A stretch of DNA of 42,621 bases from contig JAJRQA010000183.1 in NCBI GenBank assembly GCA_024280475.1, forward strand, positions 1-42,621, written 5' to 3'. The notes beneath the pieces were generated by a model. It was not told where the DNA came from, did no database searches, and was given only the letters and a program-made list of their open reading frames with translations. A program made the position numbers and the translations under genes. Shown here piece by piece: positions 12,762 to 35,139 of the stretch; position 1 is the first letter of the stretch; each line of letters starts with the position of its first letter. Origin of the DNA: Alphaproteobacteria bacterium. GTDB lineage: Bacteria > Pseudomonadota > Alphaproteobacteria > Rhizobiales > JAKIUO01.

Positions 12762-15290
12762 ATGGCTTTTGTCGGGATGAACGCTTCTCGCGGTTCACGG
12801 GAGCGGTCTGCATTAAGATCGCAATTGATCGAAAAAGAAACAAAAAATACAAAATTTGGTTTGGAAAAGCCGGCATCTATTGAGCAGGCTTCTCAAGCGA
12901 ATGGCCTTGGATCTCGCGCGCCAGGCAGTCTTTCCATCGGCAGTCCCGGTGCCCTGCTGGTCACCGCAGGTCTGTTGATGGCCTCAGGGTCCAGCCTTAT
13001 CCATATATTGCAGCTTCCCGTGACCACCGTATTTGGCTTGGCCGGGATGGTGTTTGCTACCCTTGGGGTTGCCTTTTTGGTTTCCGAGCGCCGCAAACTA
13101 TGCGAGCAAATGAATATAGGTGATACGACTTCACGCAAAATAGACCATCTGACGAGACAGCTCGATGAGGGCATCGAGTCTTTGCGCGATGTGCAATGGG
13201 AGATGCGTGATAGTGAGTTGCGCTATCGTGATCTGTTGGACAATCAGCTGGATATTATCATGCGCCGTGACCGCACTGGTCGCATCAGTTTTATCAATGA
13301 TGCCTTTTGCGCGACCTTTGGCGCGGACCAAAACACCACCATTGGGGCCTTGTTTGAGCCAGAATATCTGCTGGGAAGCAAAGCCGTACCGTTTGGCCAG
13401 TTCGGCAAATCCGAGCGCTATCAATATGAGCAGCAGCTGAGTACCGAACTTGGGCCACGCTGGTTCAGTTTTGAAGATGTTGCTATCCGCGATGATGACG
13501 GCGAGTTGCGCGAAGTTCATACCGTGGGTCGCGATATTACCGACGAGAAAAAGACGGCGAGCGAATTGCAAGAAGCGCGCGAGCTGGCAGAGCATGCCAA
13601 TCACGCCAAGACCCGTTTTCTGGCGACAATGAGCCATGAAATCAGAACTCCCATGAACGGCATTATGGGCATGACCGATCTGTTGACCGAAAGCAAACTG
13701 AGCCCGGAACAACGGACTTATTGTCATGCCATCAATAAATCCGCCACGACCCTGCTCTCCTTGATTGACGAAATTCTAGATTTCTCGAAGATCGAGGCTG
13801 GCAAATTCGAGATGGTTCAAAAGCCCTATAATATTACTGAATTTGCTCAGGGCGTTGTCGAGCTGATGGCCCCACGGGCGTTTGAAAAAAATCTGTCACT
13901 TGGCTGCTTTGTCTCGCCAGATCTGAGTGATCTGGTGATCGGCGATGAAATGCGCATGCGTCAGATCTTGCTGAACCTGGTTGGCAATGCCATCAAGTTT
14001 ACGGATCGGGGTGGCGTCACTCTTGAGATCAGCTCTGCTGGTAAAAAAGGTGAGCTGTTGCGCTTTTGTGTTTCTGATACCGGCATCGGCCTGTCTAAAA
14101 CCGATATGGAACGAATATTTGTCGAATTTGAGCAAGTTGATAGCTCCAATGCCCGGCGCAATGGCGGCACGGGACTTGGGCTGGCTATTACACGACGTCT
14201 GGTGGAAAAAATGGGCGGCGAAATCAGTGTTAATAGTGTGCGTGCCAAAGGATCTGTATTCACGGTCGATATGGCGCTTGAAAATGCCAAAGGGGCTGTT
14301 TCCTTGCGTGAGCAACTTGTATCTCCGAGCCATGTCAAACGGGCTTTGATTGCTTGCGATCATGAACTTGAGGGACAGTTTATCGGCAAGATGCTGAAAA
14401 GCCATGGCGTTGACGTGGTCGTTCTGGATCGGCTCATGGCTTACGAAATGCTGGAAGATGGCATTGGCGATGGTTTTGATGTGCTGATATGCGATGCTGT
14501 TGAAGCGTCAGACTTCGCGCAAAAGCTTGCTCGCATGGTCGAGCTGCATGCCGGTCGCCCGGTCAAGGGATTGATGTTGATCGAAGCCACTGATCGTCAT
14601 GACTTTGAATCCTTGCGCCACAAGGGTTATGATAACTATGTCACGCGCCCGGTTCGCCATATATCTTTATTGCGACAGCTGGATACACTGCGAGCCAGCC
14701 CGATTGTGCCTTATCCAGAGCCGCATCAAAGTGACTTTGCGCCAAAAACCCTTTCTCTCCAGTGCCTTGCCCCCAACACCGTTGACCTGGCAAGTGACGA
14801 ACAGGTCGAAGAGCGGATCGCCGCGGATCCGGTTTCCATTGCAAAGGAGCCGCGCTCGAAGGTCAACTCTTCCACACAAAAAGCCCGTATTTTACTGGCC
14901 GAAGACAATGAGATCAATGCACTGCTGGGTTGTCGTCTGCTCGAACATATGGGCTATGATGTGACCCATGTAACAGATGGACAGCTGGCATTGACGGCGA
15001 TTAAAAATGCCGATAGCGATCATCAATTTGATGTCGTGTTGATGGATATCCACATGCCACATATGGATGGTATTAGAGCCACCCAGGAAATCCGTGCTTA
15101 TGAAGAATATTGTGGGCTGTTCCTTAACCCGGTGCCGATTATCGCGCTCACCGCAAATGCCTTTGATGAGGTCAAATCCGAATGTTATGCGGTGGGCATG
15201 AATGCCTATCTCGCCAAACCATTTGCCAGAGATGAGTTGCGCAACATCATTGAGAGCTGTCTGCGTACGCGGGCAGAGATGGCGGGCTAG
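12762..15290 (+). CDS. hybrid sensor histidine kinase / response regulator (TM, PAS, HisKA, HATPase_c, REC)
   Basis: It has an N-terminal TM segment, a PAS-like region and an H-box HEIRTPMNGIMGMTDLL. The N/G boxes are NLVGNAIKFT and DTGIGL. The C-terminal receiver domain includes ILLAEDNEIN...VLMDIHMPHMDG...LTANA...K. Confidence 0.85.
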   Translation: MAFVGMNASRGSRERSALRSQLIEKETKNTKFGLEKPASIEQASQANGLGSRAPGSLSIGSPGALLVTAGLLMASGSSLIHILQLPVTTVFGLAGMVFATLGVAFLVSERRKLCEQMNIGDTTSRKIDHLTRQLDEGIESLRDVQWEMRDSELRYRDLLDNQLDIIMRRDRTGRISFINDAFCATFGADQNTTIGALFEPEYLLGSKAVPFGQFGKSERYQYEQQLSTELGPRWFSFEDVAIRDDDGELREVHTVGRDITDEKKTASELQEARELAEHANHAKTRFLATMSHEIRTPMNGIMGMTDLLTESKLSPEQRTYCHAINKSATTLLSLIDEILDFSKIEAGKFEMVQKPYNITEFAQGVVELMAPRAFEKNLSLGCFVSPDLSDLVIGDEMRMRQILLNLVGNAIKFTDRGGVTLEISSAGKKGELLRFCVSDTGIGLSKTDMERIFVEFEQVDSSNARRNGGTGLGLAITRRLVEKMGGEISVNSVRAKGSVFTVDMALENAKGAVSLREQLVSPSHVKRALIACDHELEGQFIGKMLKSHGVDVVVLDRLMAYEMLEDGIGDGFDVLICDAVEASDFAQKLARMVELHAGRPVKGLMLIEATDRHDFESLRHKGYDNYVTRPVRHISLLRQLDTLRASPIVPYPEPHQSDFAPKTLSLQCLAPNTVDLASDEQVEERIAADPVSIAKEPRSKVNSSTQKARILLAEDNEINALLGCRLLEHMGYDVTHVTDGQLALTAIKNADSDHQFDVVLMDIHMPHMDGIRATQEIRAYEEYCGLFLNPVPIIALTANAFDEVKSECYAVGMNAYLAKPFARDELRNIIESCLRTRAEMAG

Positions 15291-15752: not shown

Positions 15753-16733
15753 ATGCTGGGTATGATCAAAAGTTTCGCGGTTTTTGGGTTTTCGCTATTA
15801 TTGATGATTTCATATCAATCCGGGCAGGCATCAGCTCAGTTTGACAATGATAGTTGGCTCAATAATGCTTTTGTCACGCCCTTGCCGAGCAAGATCAAAA
15901 ATGGCAAGTCGGTCACGCAAGGTAAAAGCGCGTCGATCAAGGCTTTGCAAAGCTTCATGGAGAGCGGCGCATTTTTGAGCCCCAGCGATGTCACAAACTT
16001 TTCCAAAAGCATAGAAAGCCTGGTGGGAAATTATTTCTATATCGATAAGAAAAGCGGCCAGTTACAACTGCTCGGTCCAACATTTGTTGAAGCCAATAAG
16101 ACGGTTGGTATCAAGGATGTCATCATATTCAGGGCGATTGTCGACCGTAAATTTGGCACGGGCGCCAAAGTACCCGCGTTTCTTGAATTGCATATGCAAA
16201 AAGATGATTTGACAGAGCTGACTATTCGCAGCATCGCCACCGTTATTGGTAATAGTGGATCGAATATGGTGGCTTGCAACGCCCCGTTTGGTGACTTTGG
16301 TGCCAATAGCGATCAACTCTTTTATATCACCGCGGCGAGTGTTTCCATGATCTATAAGAAAGCCTATCAGCTGCGTGAGCAAAGCGGCTCGGGGCTCATA
16401 TCCATGTTGAACCTCAAGGGCAAAAACTATTTCTCAAATAAACTGGAAACAAGAGTGCCGGTGATCTCGGTTTCTTCGATTCCGGTGCCCTCGATCCCGC
16501 AGGACAAATTTTATCTGTGCGCAAAATATAATGATGCCGTAAAGAGTATCGAGACGGCTTCTTTGACAAAGAAAACCAAGGTTCGTGCCGTGCGTGCGAT
16601 GCGTGCCATGGGGCCAAGCAGGCAGCAGCGCGTCTTGAATAGTCTGGATGCGCAACTGTCCAGTGTCGCGGTCAAGGGGGATGAGAAAGCCGTCATTAAA
16701 CTACGGGGCAAAGTGGTTGAAGTCAGGCAGTAA
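15753..16733 (+). CDS. hypothetical secreted protein
   Basis: The 326-aa protein has a signal peptide (MLGMIKSFAVFGFSLLLMISYQSGQASA-QF) and a GAGGGAG SD. I recognise no family. Confidence 0.55.
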   Translation: MLGMIKSFAVFGFSLLLMISYQSGQASAQFDNDSWLNNAFVTPLPSKIKNGKSVTQGKSASIKALQSFMESGAFLSPSDVTNFSKSIESLVGNYFYIDKKSGQLQLLGPTFVEANKTVGIKDVIIFRAIVDRKFGTGAKVPAFLELHMQKDDLTELTIRSIATVIGNSGSNMVACNAPFGDFGANSDQLFYITAASVSMIYKKAYQLREQSGSGLISMLNLKGKNYFSNKLETRVPVISVSSIPVPSIPQDKFYLCAKYNDAVKSIETASLTKKTKVRAVRAMRAMGPSRQQRVLNSLDAQLSSVAVKGDEKAVIKLRGKVVEVRQ

Positions 16734-20335: not shown

Positions 20336-20622
20336 GACTGCGTGAGATTTTCACCAATATCATTGATGAAAGCAAGAAACAGTTTTTTTGGTAGTCAATT
20401 GTTAATTAAACCTCACTAAGAACTATTTAAAGGCGAATGATGTTTTCTTCGTTCTGCAGGTGCGATTTGCAGTCGAATATTGATGCGTCAGAAAAAATAA
20501 TAATAAAAATTCGTATTGCGTTCCCAAAATACATGAACCAGATACACCATCACTGGATGGTATTTTTGTAGATGCTGTGCTGTGAAATAATCATGTGCGG
20601 CAACCGGACCCGGGGAAACGAC

Positions 20623-22596
20623 ATGCAAGAAAATCTCATCGAAAAATTTGATGCCTATCTGTTTGATAGCGGCAAAAACTTCCAACCGAACGAGAAATTA
20701 TGGAAAGTCTGTGAGCCAATTATCAAATCCTTGATGGATGATTTTTATCGCAATATTCTATCGGTAGATGAGCTGCGATCCATTATTGGTGGTGAATCGC
20801 GGTTTGACGGGCTGAAATCGGCACAGCTCAATCATTGGAAAATGATGCTTGCGGGAAGTCTTGATGAAAATTTCCAGGAAAATTCCGTGAAGATCGGCGA
20901 AATTCACGAGCGCATTGGTCTTGATCAAGGCTGGTATATGGCTTCATATGCTTGGATCTTGATGCGGTTGCTGCCGCAGGTTGCTGCGAAATATCGTTTC
21001 TCATCGTCGCGCATGAAGGCCTATATACAGCAGATCATCGCACGCATGACGATCGATATCATGATCTCCACATCAGCCTATGAAAAAAAGTCGATGATCA
21101 ATGCTATTGGCTTGCACGAGGGAGATGCTGACACAAAGAACCTGCGCTCGCTGGCAGAAACCGTCGTTAAAGTGAACGCTACATCGTTTCGTCTTGCAAG
21201 ACTTGTTGGTAATGCCAAGGAAGCCAAACTTGGGTCACAGACCATTTCATCGGCAGCTTCACAGCTTGTGGCCTCTGTCGAGCAGATTTCTGTAAGCAGC
21301 GAAAGCGCCGCGAACGAAGCCAATGAAAGCAATCAAACCGCTCAAGAGGGCCATACGGCGATCAATGAAGCGACAAAAGCTATTCAAAATATGCTGACCG
21401 CGGTTCACGAGACCCATGAAGGCATTGAAGTTTTAAGCGAAGCGTCGAGCGAAATCGGCCAGATTTTGACTGCTATTGAGGACATTGCTGACCAGACCAA
21501 CCTGTTGGCCCTGAACGCCACGATCGAAGCTGCGCGAGCGGGGGAAGCTGGCAAGGGGTTTGCTGTTGTCGCCTCTGAAGTAAAGAGCCTGGCCAGTCAG
21601 ACATCGAAATCAACCGAAGATATTGCCCGCAAGATTGCGGCGCTGAATTCTGGTATGGAGAAAATACGCTCTACCATGATTTCGTCCCAAAGCGCGGTAA
21701 GCGAAGGTGAAACGGCCGTCGCCAGCGCCCGCGAAACAATGGATCAGATTTCTGGTCAGGTGGGCGGCGTCTATGAAAAAATGCTCGATATCTCAAATAT
21801 TTTACAAGAGCAAAAAGGCGCAACAAACGAGATTGCGCAAAGCATTGTCAATGTCGCCAATCTGTCAGCCCAGAATGAAGAACTGATCGAAGAGATGGCG
21901 GACAGCTATCAAACCACCAATGACGAATTCATGTCATCGGCCCAAAACTGGTTCAATGAAGGGTCTGATCAAGCTCTTTGCGAGATGGCGAAAATCGATC
22001 ATGTTTTGTTTAAGAAACGTGTTCTGGATACGGTCATGGATCGCGGAGATTGGAAAAGCGACGAAGTCCCTGATCATCATTCCTGCCGCCTTGGCAAATG
22101 GTATGATGCCTTGACTAACAGCAAATTGGTCAATCACCCCAGTTATAAAGCATTGGTGGAACCACATATGATTGTCCATGCTGCCGGTAAACAGGCGCTG
22201 GTCAACCATGCTGCAAATGATTTTGACGCAACCATAGCCGAAGTAGACCGCATGAATGAGGCGAGCCTTGATGTCGTGCGTTTGCTGGGGGAGTTGTCTG
22301 AGTCCCTTGATGCGGAGCAAGAAGCTGAGAACCAACGCCAATTTGACCGGCTGACCACGAGGATGAGTGCCAAACTTGATAGTGGCACCGTGGCAGGTCA
22401 GGAAATCACCATAGAAGATATGTCTAAAGGCGGCGTTGGCATTCGGGGCGCAAGTTTGCAACCTGGCCAGGAGGTCAGTATTTCTGTCGGTAATGATGGG
22501 CCAAGAGATGGTGTCACGAGATGGGTCGCAGGCGATCGCGCCGGTATCCAGTTTGAAGACACCAATGCCGAACCGGCGCGAAAAAAAGCCGGTTGA
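20623..22596 (+). CDS. soluble globin-coupled chemoreceptor: HemAT-type globin sensor, MCP signalling domain, CZB zinc-binding domain and C-terminal PilZ domain
   Basis: N-term residues ~30-170 align by eye to the HemAT globin ([23 protein letters not shown] against HemAT IASIHLRIGLLPKWYMGAF, proximal His). The highly conserved MCP hairpin is [31 protein letters not shown]. The CZB motif is [10 protein letters not shown]...H. The C-terminus has PilZ motifs RLTTR (RxxxR) and DMSKGGVGI (DxSxGG). There is no TM helix. I chose the start at MQENL (20623, GGGGAA SD). Confidence 0.8.
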
Positions 22597-26518: not shown

Positions 26519-26603
26519 TGGTTAGATAGAAGGAATCGAACCTTCAAGGTCTTGCGACCACACGATCATGGATCATGTTGCGTTACCATTTCGCCATATC
26601 CAA
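26519..26603 (-). tRNA. tRNA-like gene, type II (long variable arm), Leu-like D-arm, anticodon loop UCCAUGA (nominal anticodon CAU); identity unclear, possibly a pseudogene
   Basis: Hand-folding of the minus strand gives acceptor UUGGAUA/UAUCUAA (7 bp including G-U) and D-arm GCG-AAAUGGUAA-CGC. The anticodon stem is CAUGA/UCGUG with loop UCCAUGA. The variable stem is GGUC-GCAA-GACC, the T-arm is GAAGG-UUCGAUU-CCUUC, and the 3' end is ...C-CA. C33 and a CAU anticodon in a type II body are atypical. Confidence 0.4.
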
Positions 26604-26793: not shown

Positions 26794-28128
26794 CTAGCCC
26801 TCTTTCTTGTCATCCCCACTGTCATCTCCATCGGTAGTTGCTCCGCCGATAAGAGCGGCCGCTTCTTTGGCGGCATCCATGGTGCTTTGTGTCAGGTTCC
26901 CTGCCGTCTCGGCGACACCGGTAACCGCGCTGCTCGCAGCATCTTTAGCCCCGCCAGCGACAACTCCGGCCGCGCCCGCCACAGCGGCTGCGGCAACTCC
27001 TGCCATATCAGTTGCTCCGCTCGCCACGTCTCCAGTAGTCTCTGCGGCGCTCGACGCAGCGCTTCCCGCCACATCAACCGCTTTTTCAGCCATGTCTCCG
27101 GCAACAGATGCGGTGGCTTTGGCGGCGTCCATTGCGCCCCCTGCCATATCACCAGCGGTATCGGCGGCACTTGACGCAGCGCTTCCCGCTACATCGACCG
27201 CTTTTCCGGCCACGTCTCCGGCAACAGATGCGGTGGCTTTGGCGGCGTCCATTGCGCCCCCTGCCATATCACCAGCGGTATCGGCGGCGCTTGATGCCGC
27301 GCTTCCCGCTACATCGACCGCTTTTCCGGCCACGTCTCCGGCAACAGATGCGGTGGCTTTTGCGGCGTCCATTGCGCCCCCTGCCATATCACCAGCGGTA
27401 TCGGCGGCGCTTGCCGCCGCGCTTCCCGCTACATCGACCGCTTTTTCAGCCATGTCTCCGGCAACGGATGCTGTGGCCTTTGCGGCATCCACCGCGCCTC
27501 CAGCAACATCTCCAGCGGCGCTGGCGACCGATGCGGCGCCTTTGGCTCCCGCAACGACAGCAGCACCGGTGAGAGCGGCTGCTCCCCCCGCGACCGTCGC
27601 GGCGGATTTAAGATTGGATATGAGACTTTTTTCCCGGCGGGTACTGATACCAACACTGATCAGCAGCACGATCATCACCAGGGCGAACAGATTGATGCCA
27701 AGGCTCATAACTGTGGGATCACCTCCCCCTATCATCAGATCAAATTGGCTTTCCGGCGCTCCTAGTGGCGCTCCGTTGGTTGGAAAGCCAAAACCGCCCG
27801 CCAGCATATCCATAGCAAAGGCCATGCTGCCAAAGGCGTAGACTTTATAAGTGAGAAAGGCGGTGACGATGGCCGGTAATTGTAGCAGCCAAAATATGAC
27901 ATTTGCTATAGTTGATCCGGCGCGCCGCTCCAGCAGCCAAAAACTGCACATGATGCCATACAGGAAGAACAATCCCCCAAGAAGGGTCAAAAACAGCTCG
28001 AAATAGCTACCTCCCCCAGCGTTCAAATTACCAAAATTAGTGGTGACCACTGATAGACCGTAGACTGATCCAACCATTGCCACGATTGCCAATATTCTGC
28101 GAAGCCAAGTCTGCATTGTGCTCTCCAT
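26794..28128 (-). CDS. membrane-anchored Ala/Gly/Asp-rich tandem-repeat protein (novel)
   Basis: The N-terminal ~170 aa carry 4 predicted TM helices. About 260 aa of near-identical 40-aa repeats follow (AGDMAGGAMDAAKATASVAGDVAGKAVDVAGSAASSAADT), built from a 20-aa half-repeat, with an acidic C-terminal tail (DGDDSGDDKKEG). The start at ATG 28128 or 28116 is ambiguous, and the frame reaches a TTG at 28137. Confidence 0.65.
   Translation of the reverse strand: MESTMQTWLRRILAIVAMVGSVYGLSVVTTNFGNLNAGGGSYFELFLTLLGGLFFLYGIMCSFWLLERRAGSTIANVIFWLLQLPAIVTAFLTYKVYAFGSMAFAMDMLAGGFGFPTNGAPLGAPESQFDLMIGGGDPTVMSLGINLFALVMIVLLISVGISTRREKSLISNLKSAATVAGGAAALTGAAVVAGAKGAASVASAAGDVAGGAVDAAKATASVAGDMAEKAVDVAGSAAASAADTAGDMAGGAMDAAKATASVAGDVAGKAVDVAGSAASSAADTAGDMAGGAMDAAKATASVAGDVAGKAVDVAGSAASSAADTAGDMAGGAMDAAKATASVAGDMAEKAVDVAGSAASSAAETTGDVASGATDMAGVAAAAVAGAAGVVAGGAKDAASSAVTGVAETAGNLTQSTMDAAKEAAALIGGATTDGDDSGDDKKEG
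27092..27480. repeat. tandem 120-bp DNA repeats (about 3.3 copies, ~97-99% identical) inside the repeat-protein CDS
   Basis: catgtctccggcaacagatgcggtggctttggcggcgtccattgcgccccctgccatatcaccagcggtatcggcggc... recurs at 27092, 27212 and 27332. Confidence 0.85.
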
Positions 28129-28266
28129 GTATCCCAATTATTTTTATGCTAAGCTAGTTTACTCATTTTTTTCCAGATCATCAAGCAGGGGTCCGGGTAT
28201 CACTTTATTGCAGGTCTTGCAACAAGTAGGCGAGCGCGCCATAACATTGCTCAAAGGAGCAGCTTT

Positions 28267-29358: not shown

Positions 29359-30006
29359 CTATTCCAGATCTGAGAAATCCGAGTTCGCACAACCATCTAC
29401 TGAACCACCGGCACCCTCGTTGAGAACTGACGGTGTCTCCTTGAGACGGGGGCGCAGATAATAGTGATCGGACAAGGTCATTGAATTCACATATTTTCCA
29501 AGCGGTGAGGTATATTCATATGAAACTTCCGCCAAAATCAGGCTTGTTCCCTTGATCGTCAAGACCGGTTTGTCGTCCGCATCAAGCGGCAGCGGTACGA
29601 CTTCCATGCGTGCGTAACTCTTGACGCCGCCATTCACATAGTTGGCGCTCCAGTCGATGCGGCCTGTATCATCGCCAGCATGGCAGATGCTTGACACCGT
29701 GATGTGCAGGTTTTCAACGCCGTAAGGCTTCAGATAGGTACTGGCAGCATCAAAAATATTGTCTATCTGCCCCGATATGTCGGCAGATTGCGCCACCAGG
29801 TCAGCGGTTGCTCCAGCCAGGTCGGTGACGCGGCGGTCGGCTGACAAGGCGTGATGAAGCTCAACACTGCCCATATACAAGGTAACCATGATCGGGGCGA
29901 TCAGGGCAAATTCCAGAGCAGCAACCCCTTTATTGTCGCGCTTCAAGCGAGTGATGAATTTTTTATAAGCGTTAATCGCTGTTTTATGAGAGGTCTTGAG
30001 AAACAC
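29359..30006 (-). CDS. TadE/TadG family pilus-assembly (pseudopilin-like) protein
   Basis: The N-terminus has ...RLKRDNKGVAALEFALIAPIMVTL, the TadE-like N-terminal motif (RDxRGxAAVEFAL). The GTG start has an AAGGAG SD. Confidence 0.75.
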   Translation of the reverse strand: MFLKTSHKTAINAYKKFITRLKRDNKGVAALEFALIAPIMVTLYMGSVELHHALSADRRVTDLAGATADLVAQSADISGQIDNIFDAASTYLKPYGVENLHITVSSICHAGDDTGRIDWSANYVNGGVKSYARMEVVPLPLDADDKPVLTIKGTSLILAEVSYEYTSPLGKYVNSMTLSDHYYLRPRLKETPSVLNEGAGGSVDGCANSDFSDLE

Positions 30007-30102: not shown

Positions 30103-30678
30103 CTATGAGAACGGTTCGTTACGAAAGACCGAGATTGCATTGATCATGCGGTGATGGGGACCAGCATTGGCGAGGCCAACGACGGGTAGTTGGGCCAGAA
30201 GTTTCATTTTGTAAAACACGCGAACCACAACAACCTTGAGGCCGGAACCAAGACTAAACTCTTCATCGCCGGTGAATTCTCCGTCATCATCATGCATTTC
30301 ACCAGGATCGATCGAAATTGTCTCGAAATCATCGTAGGCGCGCACATCGATCACCAGCAGATCCGTGGTTTTGCAATCGGAGATCAGAACCGTATTGTCA
30401 CAGACAAGATCCTTGAACTGGGTTGCCGACAGATTGGCGACCTGGGCTTGACCGGTACGGATCTGGCGAGAGGCGTCGCGGACGGCATTTTCGAGATCCA
30501 GCGTTGTCATATGGACAAGCGCGGTTTCCAAAAGGGCTACAATGAGGATCAAAAATGGCGCGGCAATAATGCCAAATTCAATTGCTGTGACGCCTTCTTC
30601 ATCGCGGCGCAGTCTGCCAACGAGACGCGCAAACGGGGATTTGGGCTGCGGTATGATTTCTTCGTTCTCAATTGACAT
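30103..30678 (-). CDS. TadE family pilus-assembly protein
   Basis: It has the RLRRDEEGVTAIEFGIIAAPFLIL TadE motif followed by a TM helix, in 191 aa. Confidence 0.75.
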   Translation of the reverse strand: MSIENEEIIPQPKSPFARLVGRLRRDEEGVTAIEFGIIAAPFLILIVALLETALVHMTTLDLENAVRDASRQIRTGQAQVANLSATQFKDLVCDNTVLISDCKTTDLLVIDVRAYDDFETISIDPGEMHDDDGEFTGDEEFSLGSGLKVVVVRVFYKMKLLAQLPVVGLANAGPHHRMINAISVFRNEPFS

Positions 30679-34034: not shown

Positions 34035-34119
34035 GAATGGGTTTGCCTGCCTAGCAATCTGTGCCTGATCGCGCGAGAGCGTGTTCCTGTTGGATTATCC
34101 TGGCGAGGATGGTCTGGAT

Positions 34120-35139
34120 CTATGGCACCTTGTTTTGTTTGCGCCAGAGCTGCGCTTTGGTTTGTGCCAATTGTCTTTGTTCTTTTTTGAGGCGGGCGAT
34201 TTTAATATCGAGAGGCAGATCCGAGACGCCCCGCTGGCGTGCCAGCAGGTGCCATTTTGCAGCTTCCACAACGTCTTTTTTGAACACCAGCCCATGTGCA
34301 TAGAGTTTGGCAACGCGGTTCTGGGCGATAGGATTGCCTTTTTGCGCGGCGCGCAAGAGCAAATCGGCCCCTTGCTTTTGGTCTTTTGCAACGCCTTTGC
34401 CTTGATAAAGCATCAAACCATATTCGAGTTCGGCAACGCTCAATCCAGCATTTGCGGCGAGCCCCATCCAGTGAGCGGCCTTGGCGGCGTCACGCTTGAC
34501 CCCAGACCCGGCCTGAAAAAGGCTGGCCAGATCATACTGGGCGCGCGCTTCATTTTGATTGGCAGCTTTTTGCAGCCAGAAAAAAGACTTTGTCATATCG
34601 ATCGGGCGACCGGTTCCTGCTGCGTGAACAAGTCCCAGATTATATTGCGCCAGGGCATGCCCCTGGGTGGCGGCTACCTCAAACAGATCCGCTGCCTGTT
34701 TGATGTCGCGTTTGACCCCATATCCCCCTGCGAGCTGCAAGGCGAGCGCGAACTGGGCATCTTGATCTCCATGTTCAGCGCCTCCCGCATACCACTGCGC
34801 GGCTGTTGTGAGATCTTTTTTAACCCCCAGACCTCCGGCATAAATGCGCCCGATCAGGGTAAAGGCTTGCGGTTCGCCTTTTTTGGACTGCGCCTTCGCC
34901 AATTTGAGGGCTTTTAAATACTGGCCTTTTCGAAAAGCTGCATAGGCAGGGTCGGCGCTGGTGGTTTCAATGCTTTGTGTTTTGGGAGCAATTTGCGCTG
35001 GTGAGCTGCTGGAACCAAGTCGTTCTTGTTGTTTGGAAGTGCTCTGTGCGTTTGCCGGTAATGCGCCAATAGCCAGCACTGTCAATATGAGCGGCGACAA
35101 AACTCGCACCGATCGATTGTTTGTGTTTCGATTGATCAC
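34120..35139 (-). CDS. Sel1-repeat (TPR-like) periplasmic protein
   Basis: It has a signal peptide (…ALPANA-QS) and about seven Sel1-like 36-aa repeats (A..W(Y/F)..AA.QG...AQ..LG..Y..G.GV..D). The GTG start has a GAGGTG SD. Confidence 0.7.
   Translation of the reverse strand: MINRNTNNRSVRVLSPLILTVLAIGALPANAQSTSKQQERLGSSSSPAQIAPKTQSIETTSADPAYAAFRKGQYLKALKLAKAQSKKGEPQAFTLIGRIYAGGLGVKKDLTTAAQWYAGGAEHGDQDAQFALALQLAGGYGVKRDIKQAADLFEVAATQGHALAQYNLGLVHAAGTGRPIDMTKSFFWLQKAANQNEARAQYDLASLFQAGSGVKRDAAKAAHWMGLAANAGLSVAELEYGLMLYQGKGVAKDQKQGADLLLRAAQKGNPIAQNRVAKLYAHGLVFKKDVVEAAKWHLLARQRGVSDLPLDIKIARLKKEQRQLAQTKAQLWRKQNKVP

Follow-up and report, generated by a model that had tools for sequence, protein, structure and literature searches.

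A soluble alphaproteobacterial chemoreceptor family combining globin, zinc-binding CZB and predicted cyclic di-GMP-binding PilZ modules

The 42.6-kb stretch of alphaproteobacterial DNA analysed here (contig JAJRQA010000183.1; hereafter called the window) encodes a soluble chemoreceptor with four recognizable modules. A sensor globin, a methyl-accepting chemotaxis protein (MCP) signalling hairpin, a zinc-binding CZB bundle and a PilZ domain follow one another on a single polypeptide. The gene lies on the plus strand at 20623..22596 and is complete, stop codon included. The longest reading frame at the locus, a single long open reading frame (ORF), spans 20572-22596 on the plus strand, and its product has 657 residues if translation starts at the ATG at position 20623. 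We accept this start because the protein read from that ATG agrees in length and N-terminus with its nine closest database homologues, and because a GGGGA element resembling a Shine-Dalgarno sequence lies ∼7 nt 5' of it. ORFs antisense to the gene (for example 21934-22461, minus strand) were regarded as spurious overlaps. The highest mean Kyte-Doolittle hydropathy over 19 residues is 0.86, and the protein therefore has no transmembrane segment. An initial annotation of this DNA, made from the sequence alone, had given the same coordinates and had likewise described a receptor without a transmembrane region; it was right on both counts.

We scanned the full receptor against Pfam with hmmscan, comparing scores with the curated cut-offs. 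Protoglobin, MCPsignal, CZB and PilZ are found in that order, all four above their cut-offs. NCBIfam gives generic MCP-type matches only, far under equivalog thresholds, and the database labels of the homologues are automatic ones ('methyl-accepting chemotaxis protein', 'CZB domain-containing protein' and 'Type IV pilus assembly protein PilZ').

The N-terminal module is a sensor globin of the Protoglobin/HemAT type (residues 25-156; 20695..21090, plus strand). It matches Protoglobin (PF11563) over residues 25-156 with 96 bits (cut-off 25, E 3e-27). Moreover, residues 24-124 align with residues 52-152 of Bacillus subtilis HemAT (HemAT-Bs; phmmer against PDB entry 1or4, E 9e-12). This alignment reproduces the match of the proximal-His helix to HemAT IHLRIGLLPKWYMGAF. 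It pairs the proximal His123 of HemAT with receptor His95 (F8), the distal Tyr70 (B10) with Tyr42, and Tyr133 with Tyr105. Conservation was counted throughout in an alignment of 119 homologues; His95 is retained in 116 of them, and so is Tyr42.

The signalling hairpin occupies residues ∼160-443 (21100..21951, plus strand). MCPsignal (PF00015) is matched over residues 232-414 with 132.9 bits (cut-off 34.6, E 1.3e-38), and MCPs of known structure in the PDB match as well. The columns of the kinase-control tip, residues 291-323, are near-invariant across the homologues, and the tip has the canonical CheA/CheW-binding sequence. In the full-length AlphaFold model, a monomer with a predicted local distance difference test (pLDDT) score of 84.8, one helix (128-305) runs unbroken from the last globin helix into the N-arm of the hairpin. 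The turn falls at residue 306, within the invariant tip block; the C-arm is formed by helix 307-443, and a 5-residue break separates it from the CZB helices. The model thus places globin, CZB and PilZ all at the kinase-distal end of the hairpin. Over the aligned region the hairpin exceeds its E. coli Tsr counterpart by 14 residues, and for 212 residues it runs colinear with P. putida PcaY. These comparisons suggest a length of roughly 38-40 heptads, with the alignments to Tsr, PcaY and TM1143 being ambiguous on heptad class.

The CZB module is a four-helix bundle (residues 449-530; 21967..22212, plus strand). Pfam CZB (PF13682) matches residues 460-526 with 51.7 bits (cut-off 29.4, E 1.1e-13). 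The 3His/1Cys signature, which we take to be Hxx[WFYL]x21-28Cx[LFMVI]Gx[WFLVI]x18-27HxxxH, is matched by regular expression at residues 460-519. Three of its four predicted zinc ligands, His460, His515 and His519, are retained in all 119 homologues, and the fourth, Cys488, in 118. The helices of the full-length model comprise residues 449-471, 489-509 (as three short segments), 512-530 and 534-574. The last of these (22222..22344, plus strand) is the final CZB helix and in the AlphaFold models continues as the linker to the PilZ barrel. A Foldseek comparison identifies E. coli DgcZ's CZB domain (3t9o_B) as the best solved match for residues 449-530 (probability 1.00, TMt 0.69, rmsd 3.1, 116 columns), and the two share the same zinc-ligand spacing. 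All 30 homologous tails that were scanned singly also match CZB. The HemAT-like N-terminus, the canonical MCP hairpin and the CZB motif proposed in the initial annotation are therefore all upheld.

The PilZ domain (residues 570-650; 22330..22572, plus strand) needs a closer look. Pfam PilZ (PF07238) matches residues 570-650 of the full protein with E 1.3e-4 and 22.7 bits, where the cut-off is 22.5. The score rises to 25.0 bits on the isolated C-terminus (residues 440-657), and when homologous tails were scanned singly 25 of 30 matched, the best with E 7.5e-11. Both PilZ motifs are present. The RxxxR motif is R572-QFD-R576 (nt 22336-22350, plus strand): R572 is conserved in 97 and R576 in 95 of 119 homologues, both are invariant in the 30-sequence tail alignment, and 66 of 119 have R or K at position 571, consistent with the canonical RRxxxR. 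The DxSxxG motif is D599-M-S601-KG-G604 (DMSKGG, residues 599-604; nt 22417-22434, plus strand). Among the ∼92 homologues that have the tail and align there, D/N599 is found in 92, S601 in 91 and G604 in 92. The initial annotation had identified DMSKGG correctly. It had misplaced the other motif, however, reading it as RLTTR. The conserved RxxxR is RQFDR, four residues upstream, and R580 within RLTTR is kept in just 19 of 119 homologues.

A search of the PDB by sequence only, with a profile of the C-terminus, returned weak matches (DgcZ, E 0.011; BcsA PilZ region, E 0.05), and the decision came from structure prediction and Foldseek instead. An AlphaFold2 model of residues 440-657, built from the 30-sequence tail alignment, has a mean pLDDT of 87 and consists of four helices, the long linker helix and six β-strands. 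In both models the six strands of the PilZ barrel span residues 581-644. The RxxxR motif lies in a low-confidence loop; in the full-length model this loop, residues 575-577, adjoins the motif between helix and barrel. Foldseek matches the C-terminus to c-di-GMP (cyclic di-GMP)-bound PilZ structures, namely Alg44 (4rt0, E 2e-4), PA0012 (8u0i, TMt 0.78), VCA0042 (2rde), YcgR (5y6f) and the PilZ region of BcsA. The PilZ assignment is solid despite the marginal score of the receptor's own sequence because the motifs, the scans of homologues, the model and the fold search all agree.

Could the four-domain gene nevertheless be an artefact? The contig comes from a metagenome-derived assembly, where a gene fusion might arise in annotation or assembly; the PilZ score is marginal, and motifs can occur by chance. 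We give this idea practically no credence. The same unbroken ORF is present in isolate genomes (Roseibium aggregatum, Stappia stellulata, Pinisolibacter aquiterrae and Oceanicaulis alexandrii), the alignment runs unbroken over the domain junctions, and both structure models are confident. Nor is the resemblance to PilZ and CZB coincidental, as the profile matches, the AlphaFold model and the Foldseek matches to solved structures demonstrate.

The receptor belongs to a family. A word-indexed search returned >100 full-length relatives at 37-91% identity, and its tail is 93% and 89% identical to those of the closest relatives, which come from metagenome-assembled genomes of Alphaproteobacteria. 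When one genome per GTDB species was scanned, 212 stretches proved to encode relatives of the CZB-PilZ region. We classed 82 loci, the best 80 of these 212 stretches together with two others, using family hidden Markov models (HMMs) built from one alignment (A1); single-sequence phmmer under-detected globin and PilZ. The full globin-MCP-CZB-PilZ architecture was found at 42 of the 82 loci, globin-MCP-CZB at 15, MCP-CZB-PilZ with a short non-globin N-terminus at 14 and MCP-CZB at 10. The one remaining locus has CZB only, on a short ORF that is probably truncated. The initial annotation had called the combination of globin, CZB and PilZ unusual. That was an overstatement, given the four-domain form at 42 of 82 loci and a globin-MCP-CZB core that is already listed in the literature (PMC8262984). 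The family is real but modest in size: among 1.84 billion representatives of clusters at 50% identity, only about 25 of the best 150 matches to CZB-PilZ cover both domains.

The family's hosts are Alphaproteobacteria. They include the Stappiaceae (Roseibium/Labrenzia, Stappia, Pannonibacter and Polymorphum), Cohaesibacter, Pinisolibacter, Oryzibacter, Prosthecomicrobium and Phreatobacter, and, in the Caulobacterales/Maricaulales, Ponticaulis, Asticcacaulis, Oceanicaulis and Maricaulis. Four-domain genes occur in many marine and soil Alphaproteobacteria, among them Roseibium, Stappia, Cohaesibacter, Pinisolibacter, Ponticaulis, Asticcacaulis and Oceanicaulis.

Two sets of relatives each lack one sensor module. 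In the sister architecture, a non-globin N-terminus of ∼130 residues without a Pfam match precedes MCP-CZB-PilZ; its loci include two from Pannonibacter (L015 and L017), one each from Oryzibacter (L027) and Phreatobacter (L039), L005, L072 and others. The Pannonibacter form is supported by Pfam, with PilZ at 22.1 bits, just below the cut-off of 22.5. Such forms show that the CZB-PilZ tandem is a cassette not limited to globin receptors. The other set lacks PilZ. A tail of ∼100-116 residues carrying PilZ is present in 89 to 91 of the 119 aligned homologues, and 28 end soon after CZB; some of these short forms could be truncated gene calls. From a rough neighbour-joining tree with parsimony mapping we infer that PilZ is ancestral in the family and has been lost independently ∼12 times. 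Loss within a single genus is illustrated by Stappia sp. P0063 (560 residues, no PilZ) beside S. stellulata P0039 (642 residues). Proteins of both sets, for example the PilZ-less globin-MCP-CZB protein of Stappia sp. P0063 and the non-globin MCP-CZB-PilZ protein of Pannonibacter (L015), share 38-55% identity over common domains. The modules are therefore separable.

How does this receptor compare with characterized ones? HemAT of B. subtilis and Halobacterium salinarum (1or4/1or6) is likewise soluble, with an N-terminal globin directly on the MCP hairpin, and neither protein has a HAMP domain or a transmembrane segment. The proximal His, the B10 Tyr and the equivalent of Tyr133 are common to both. 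However, the relation is distant, the phmmer match being limited to the core globin helices, and HemAT ends after the hairpin, with neither CZB nor PilZ. In their survey of CZB proteins, Perkins et al. (2021) include 'globin' in the sensor domains that soluble CZB chemoreceptors carry, and PilZ has zero occurrences in the text (PMC8262984). In TlpD, Cys and Zn form a redox switch (PMC6715182), and a crystal structure of full-length H. pylori TlpD (PAS-MA-CZB) has sensor and CZB at the same end of the hairpin (bioRxiv 10.64898/2026.01.16.699579), an arrangement that our receptor shares as modelled. TlpD and S. Typhimurium McpA are also cytoplasmic, with an N-terminal sensor, an MCP hairpin and then a 3His/1Cys CZB domain. 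By contrast, the N-terminus of TlpD is PAS-like and its hairpin far shorter, and whereas CZB ends the protein in the TlpD-like group, ∼125 residues including PilZ follow it here.

Azospirillum brasilense Tlp1 and Aer and Azorhizobium caulinodans Cbp1 are membrane-bound receptors with periplasmic or PAS sensors, and in each the PilZ domain comes directly after the MCP domain. The receptor in the window resembles them as an alphaproteobacterial MCP with a C-terminal PilZ domain bearing RxxxR and D/NxSxxG. Unlike them, it is soluble and globin-based, and CZB lies between MCP and PilZ. These three PilZ chemoreceptors of Alphaproteobacteria couple c-di-GMP to aerotaxis (PMC3604760, PMC6406031, PMC6454048), and the MCPsignal-PilZ fusion is listed just generically in a review of PilZ proteins (bioRxiv 10.1101/814665). 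A literature search of 8 million full texts found no paper describing a globin-MCP-CZB-PilZ protein. On this search the four-domain form is new; globin-MCP-CZB and MCP-PilZ receptors have each been described already.

We think it probable that the protein is an integrated receptor, a cytoplasmic and probably homodimeric MCP in which O2, zinc or redox state and c-di-GMP all feed into one kinase-control hairpin. By analogy with HemAT, O2 (or NO or CO) on the heme would shift the globin and the N-arm helix. By the precedent of TlpD and DgcZ, zinc occupancy or oxidation of Cys488 would alter or loosen how CZB packs against the C-arm. Binding of c-di-GMP would order the RxxxR loop and make the PilZ barrel dock anew, on the model of A. 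brasilense Tlp1 and Aer. The three inputs would jointly bias the conserved, CheA-controlling tip, so that aerotaxis could be tuned both by redox or zinc state and by the motile-versus-sessile state of the cell. The che genes that the receptor serves would lie elsewhere in the genome.

Several points weigh against this reading. Heme, zinc and c-di-GMP are ligands that we infer. The score of the receptor's own PilZ domain is barely over threshold, and since PilZ appears to have been lost ∼12 times, it should be dispensable for the core function. The models are monomers and cover a single chain of the predicted dimer. The distal heme pocket also differs from that of HemAT. In HemAT-Bs, Thr95 at E11 hydrogen-bonds bound O2, a trait specific to HemAT and not one of the globin superfamily. 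The corresponding residue here is Ala67 in place of the HemAT-type distal Thr/Ser, and 107 of 119 homologues likewise have Ala there. The pocket is therefore unlike HemAT's and, judging from the alignment, O2 affinity or gas selectivity may differ. Finally, by Pfam there are no che, flagellar or GGDEF/EAL genes among the 30 other ORFs of the window, nor were che, flagellar or c-di-GMP turnover genes found beside orthologues. The initial annotation had noted the lack of che genes in the window and called the receptor an orphan, and correctly so, though that is ordinary for MCP genes.

The repeated loss of PilZ and its marginal HMM score would suit a simpler arrangement, in which only the globin senses, CZB is a structural zinc or dimerization cap, and PilZ is a localization or protein-docking module. 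The TlpD C-terminus is reported to be required for polar localization (PMC13001251), and some PilZ-family proteins, FlgX for example, do not bind c-di-GMP (PMC12422006). Against this, RxxxR and D/NxSxxG are retained over 37-90% identity wherever the tail is present, and the reactive Cys and three His residues of CZB are near-invariant. PilZ domains that do not bind c-di-GMP typically lose both motifs. We consider globin-only sensing unlikely because the ligand-binding residues are so strictly conserved.

The integrated receptor that we favour could also work in a more elaborate way. Globin, CZB and PilZ might be in physical contact at the dimer's kinase-distal end and form a coincidence detector, in which c-di-GMP and the Cys-Zn redox state, beyond merely scaling the O2 signal from the heme, gate it or even reverse its sign. 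We regard this as speculative and rather unlikely. If true, second messenger and redox state would decide, through the detector, whether the cell behaves as aerophilic or aerophobic, and the detector would constitute a receptor-level logic gate of a kind not described for any chemoreceptor.

The genomic surroundings bear on which output the receptor controls. The Pfam scan of the 30 other ORFs shows a housekeeping chromosomal region, with genes for electron transfer flavoprotein alpha and beta, a rhomboid protein, ArgJ and a hybrid histidine kinase. A gene for a XerC/D-type recombinase is followed by priA, which lies directly upstream of the receptor gene; murJ lies directly downstream. Further genes in the window encode an SPFH protein, TrpS, two TadE-like proteins, GshB, a ComM-like Mg-chelatase, FtsH and a TrxB-like reductase. 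Between priA and the receptor gene, direct reading of the sequence shows an AT-rich intergenic region (20336..20622, plus strand). Inspected by eye only, it has no obvious CtrA or FNR box, and a promoter and terminator scan around the receptor gene gave matches at chance level only.

The two TadE-like genes (29359-30006 and 30103-30678, both minus strand), of the Flp/Tad pilus assembly type, lie ∼7 kb downstream of the receptor gene, and the order PriA-receptor-MurJ...TrpS-TadE-TadE is kept in a 69%-identity relative (633-kb contig). With this conserved synteny in view, the receptor might instead serve a Che-like pathway whose output is something else, such as Tad pili, surface attachment or biofilm, its globin reporting NO or redox state and not O2. 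A cytoplasmic receptor without che genes found nearby would fit such an output, as would the tie between PilZ, c-di-GMP and the motile-sessile switch; Ala instead of the HemAT Thr at E11 would fit NO or redox sensing. However, the neighbours of the orthologue in Roseibium aggregatum are unrelated housekeeping genes, with no Tad genes nearby, and for this reason we treat the linkage to Tad genes as probably coincidental. Moreover, the hairpin tip has the canonical CheA/CheW-binding sequence, and the characterized globin-MCP, CZB-MCP and PilZ-MCP receptors all control swimming. A non-flagellar output is thus, in our judgement, very unlikely, and the receptor is without an informative conserved neighbour.

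Other features of the window deserve a brief record. The hybrid histidine kinase gene (12762-15290, plus strand) encodes 842 residues with the domain order HisKA-HATPase_c-REC and an N-terminal region of ∼280 residues without a Pfam match; a conserved counterpart occupies the equivalent position in L081, the locus of a 69%-identity relative. Three ORFs have no Pfam match even at E <= 1: 26797-28137 (minus strand, 447 residues), 15753-16733 (plus strand, 326 residues) and 34081-34917 (plus strand, 278 residues). GC content is higher (0.60) in the stretch around the first, and L081 has at the equivalent slot a 518-residue ORF that also lacks a Pfam match. Adjoining the 447-residue ORF, between it and the SPFH gene, is an odd tRNA-like gene (26520-26603, minus strand, 83-84 nt). 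Its anticodon is CAU, position 33 holds C and not U, the extra arm, GGUCGCAAGACC, has 12 nt, and the Rfam tRNA score is just 40 bits. CAU together with a long variable arm is not a standard bacterial tRNA type. The gene is conserved in a 93%-identity relative (L001, 9674-9757, minus strand). In L081 the same slot holds a 75-nt tRNA gene with the rare anticodon AGU (13841-13915, minus strand), which resembles the tRNA-like gene of the window in its acceptor, D and T arms.

How several internal signals are integrated at one chemoreceptor is only partly understood, and HemAT, TlpD and Tlp1 have each been studied as a receptor for one type of cue. The family described here has a gas sensor, a zinc/redox switch and a predicted c-di-GMP module on one soluble polypeptide. 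Nature has also supplied deletion variants, in the relatives without PilZ and those without the globin, and orthologues are present in culturable strains of Roseibium, Stappia, Pinisolibacter and Oceanicaulis. Together, these variants and hosts make the family a convenient system in which to study the tuning of aerotaxis, both by redox state and by the messenger of the motile-sessile switch. Because the receptor is soluble, biochemistry and structural work on the full-length protein should be feasible. To a chemotaxis specialist the finding will be useful yet not very surprising, as all the parts were already known. Within the Alphaproteobacteria the architecture forms a family that recurs, is evolutionarily stable and consists of well-known modules.

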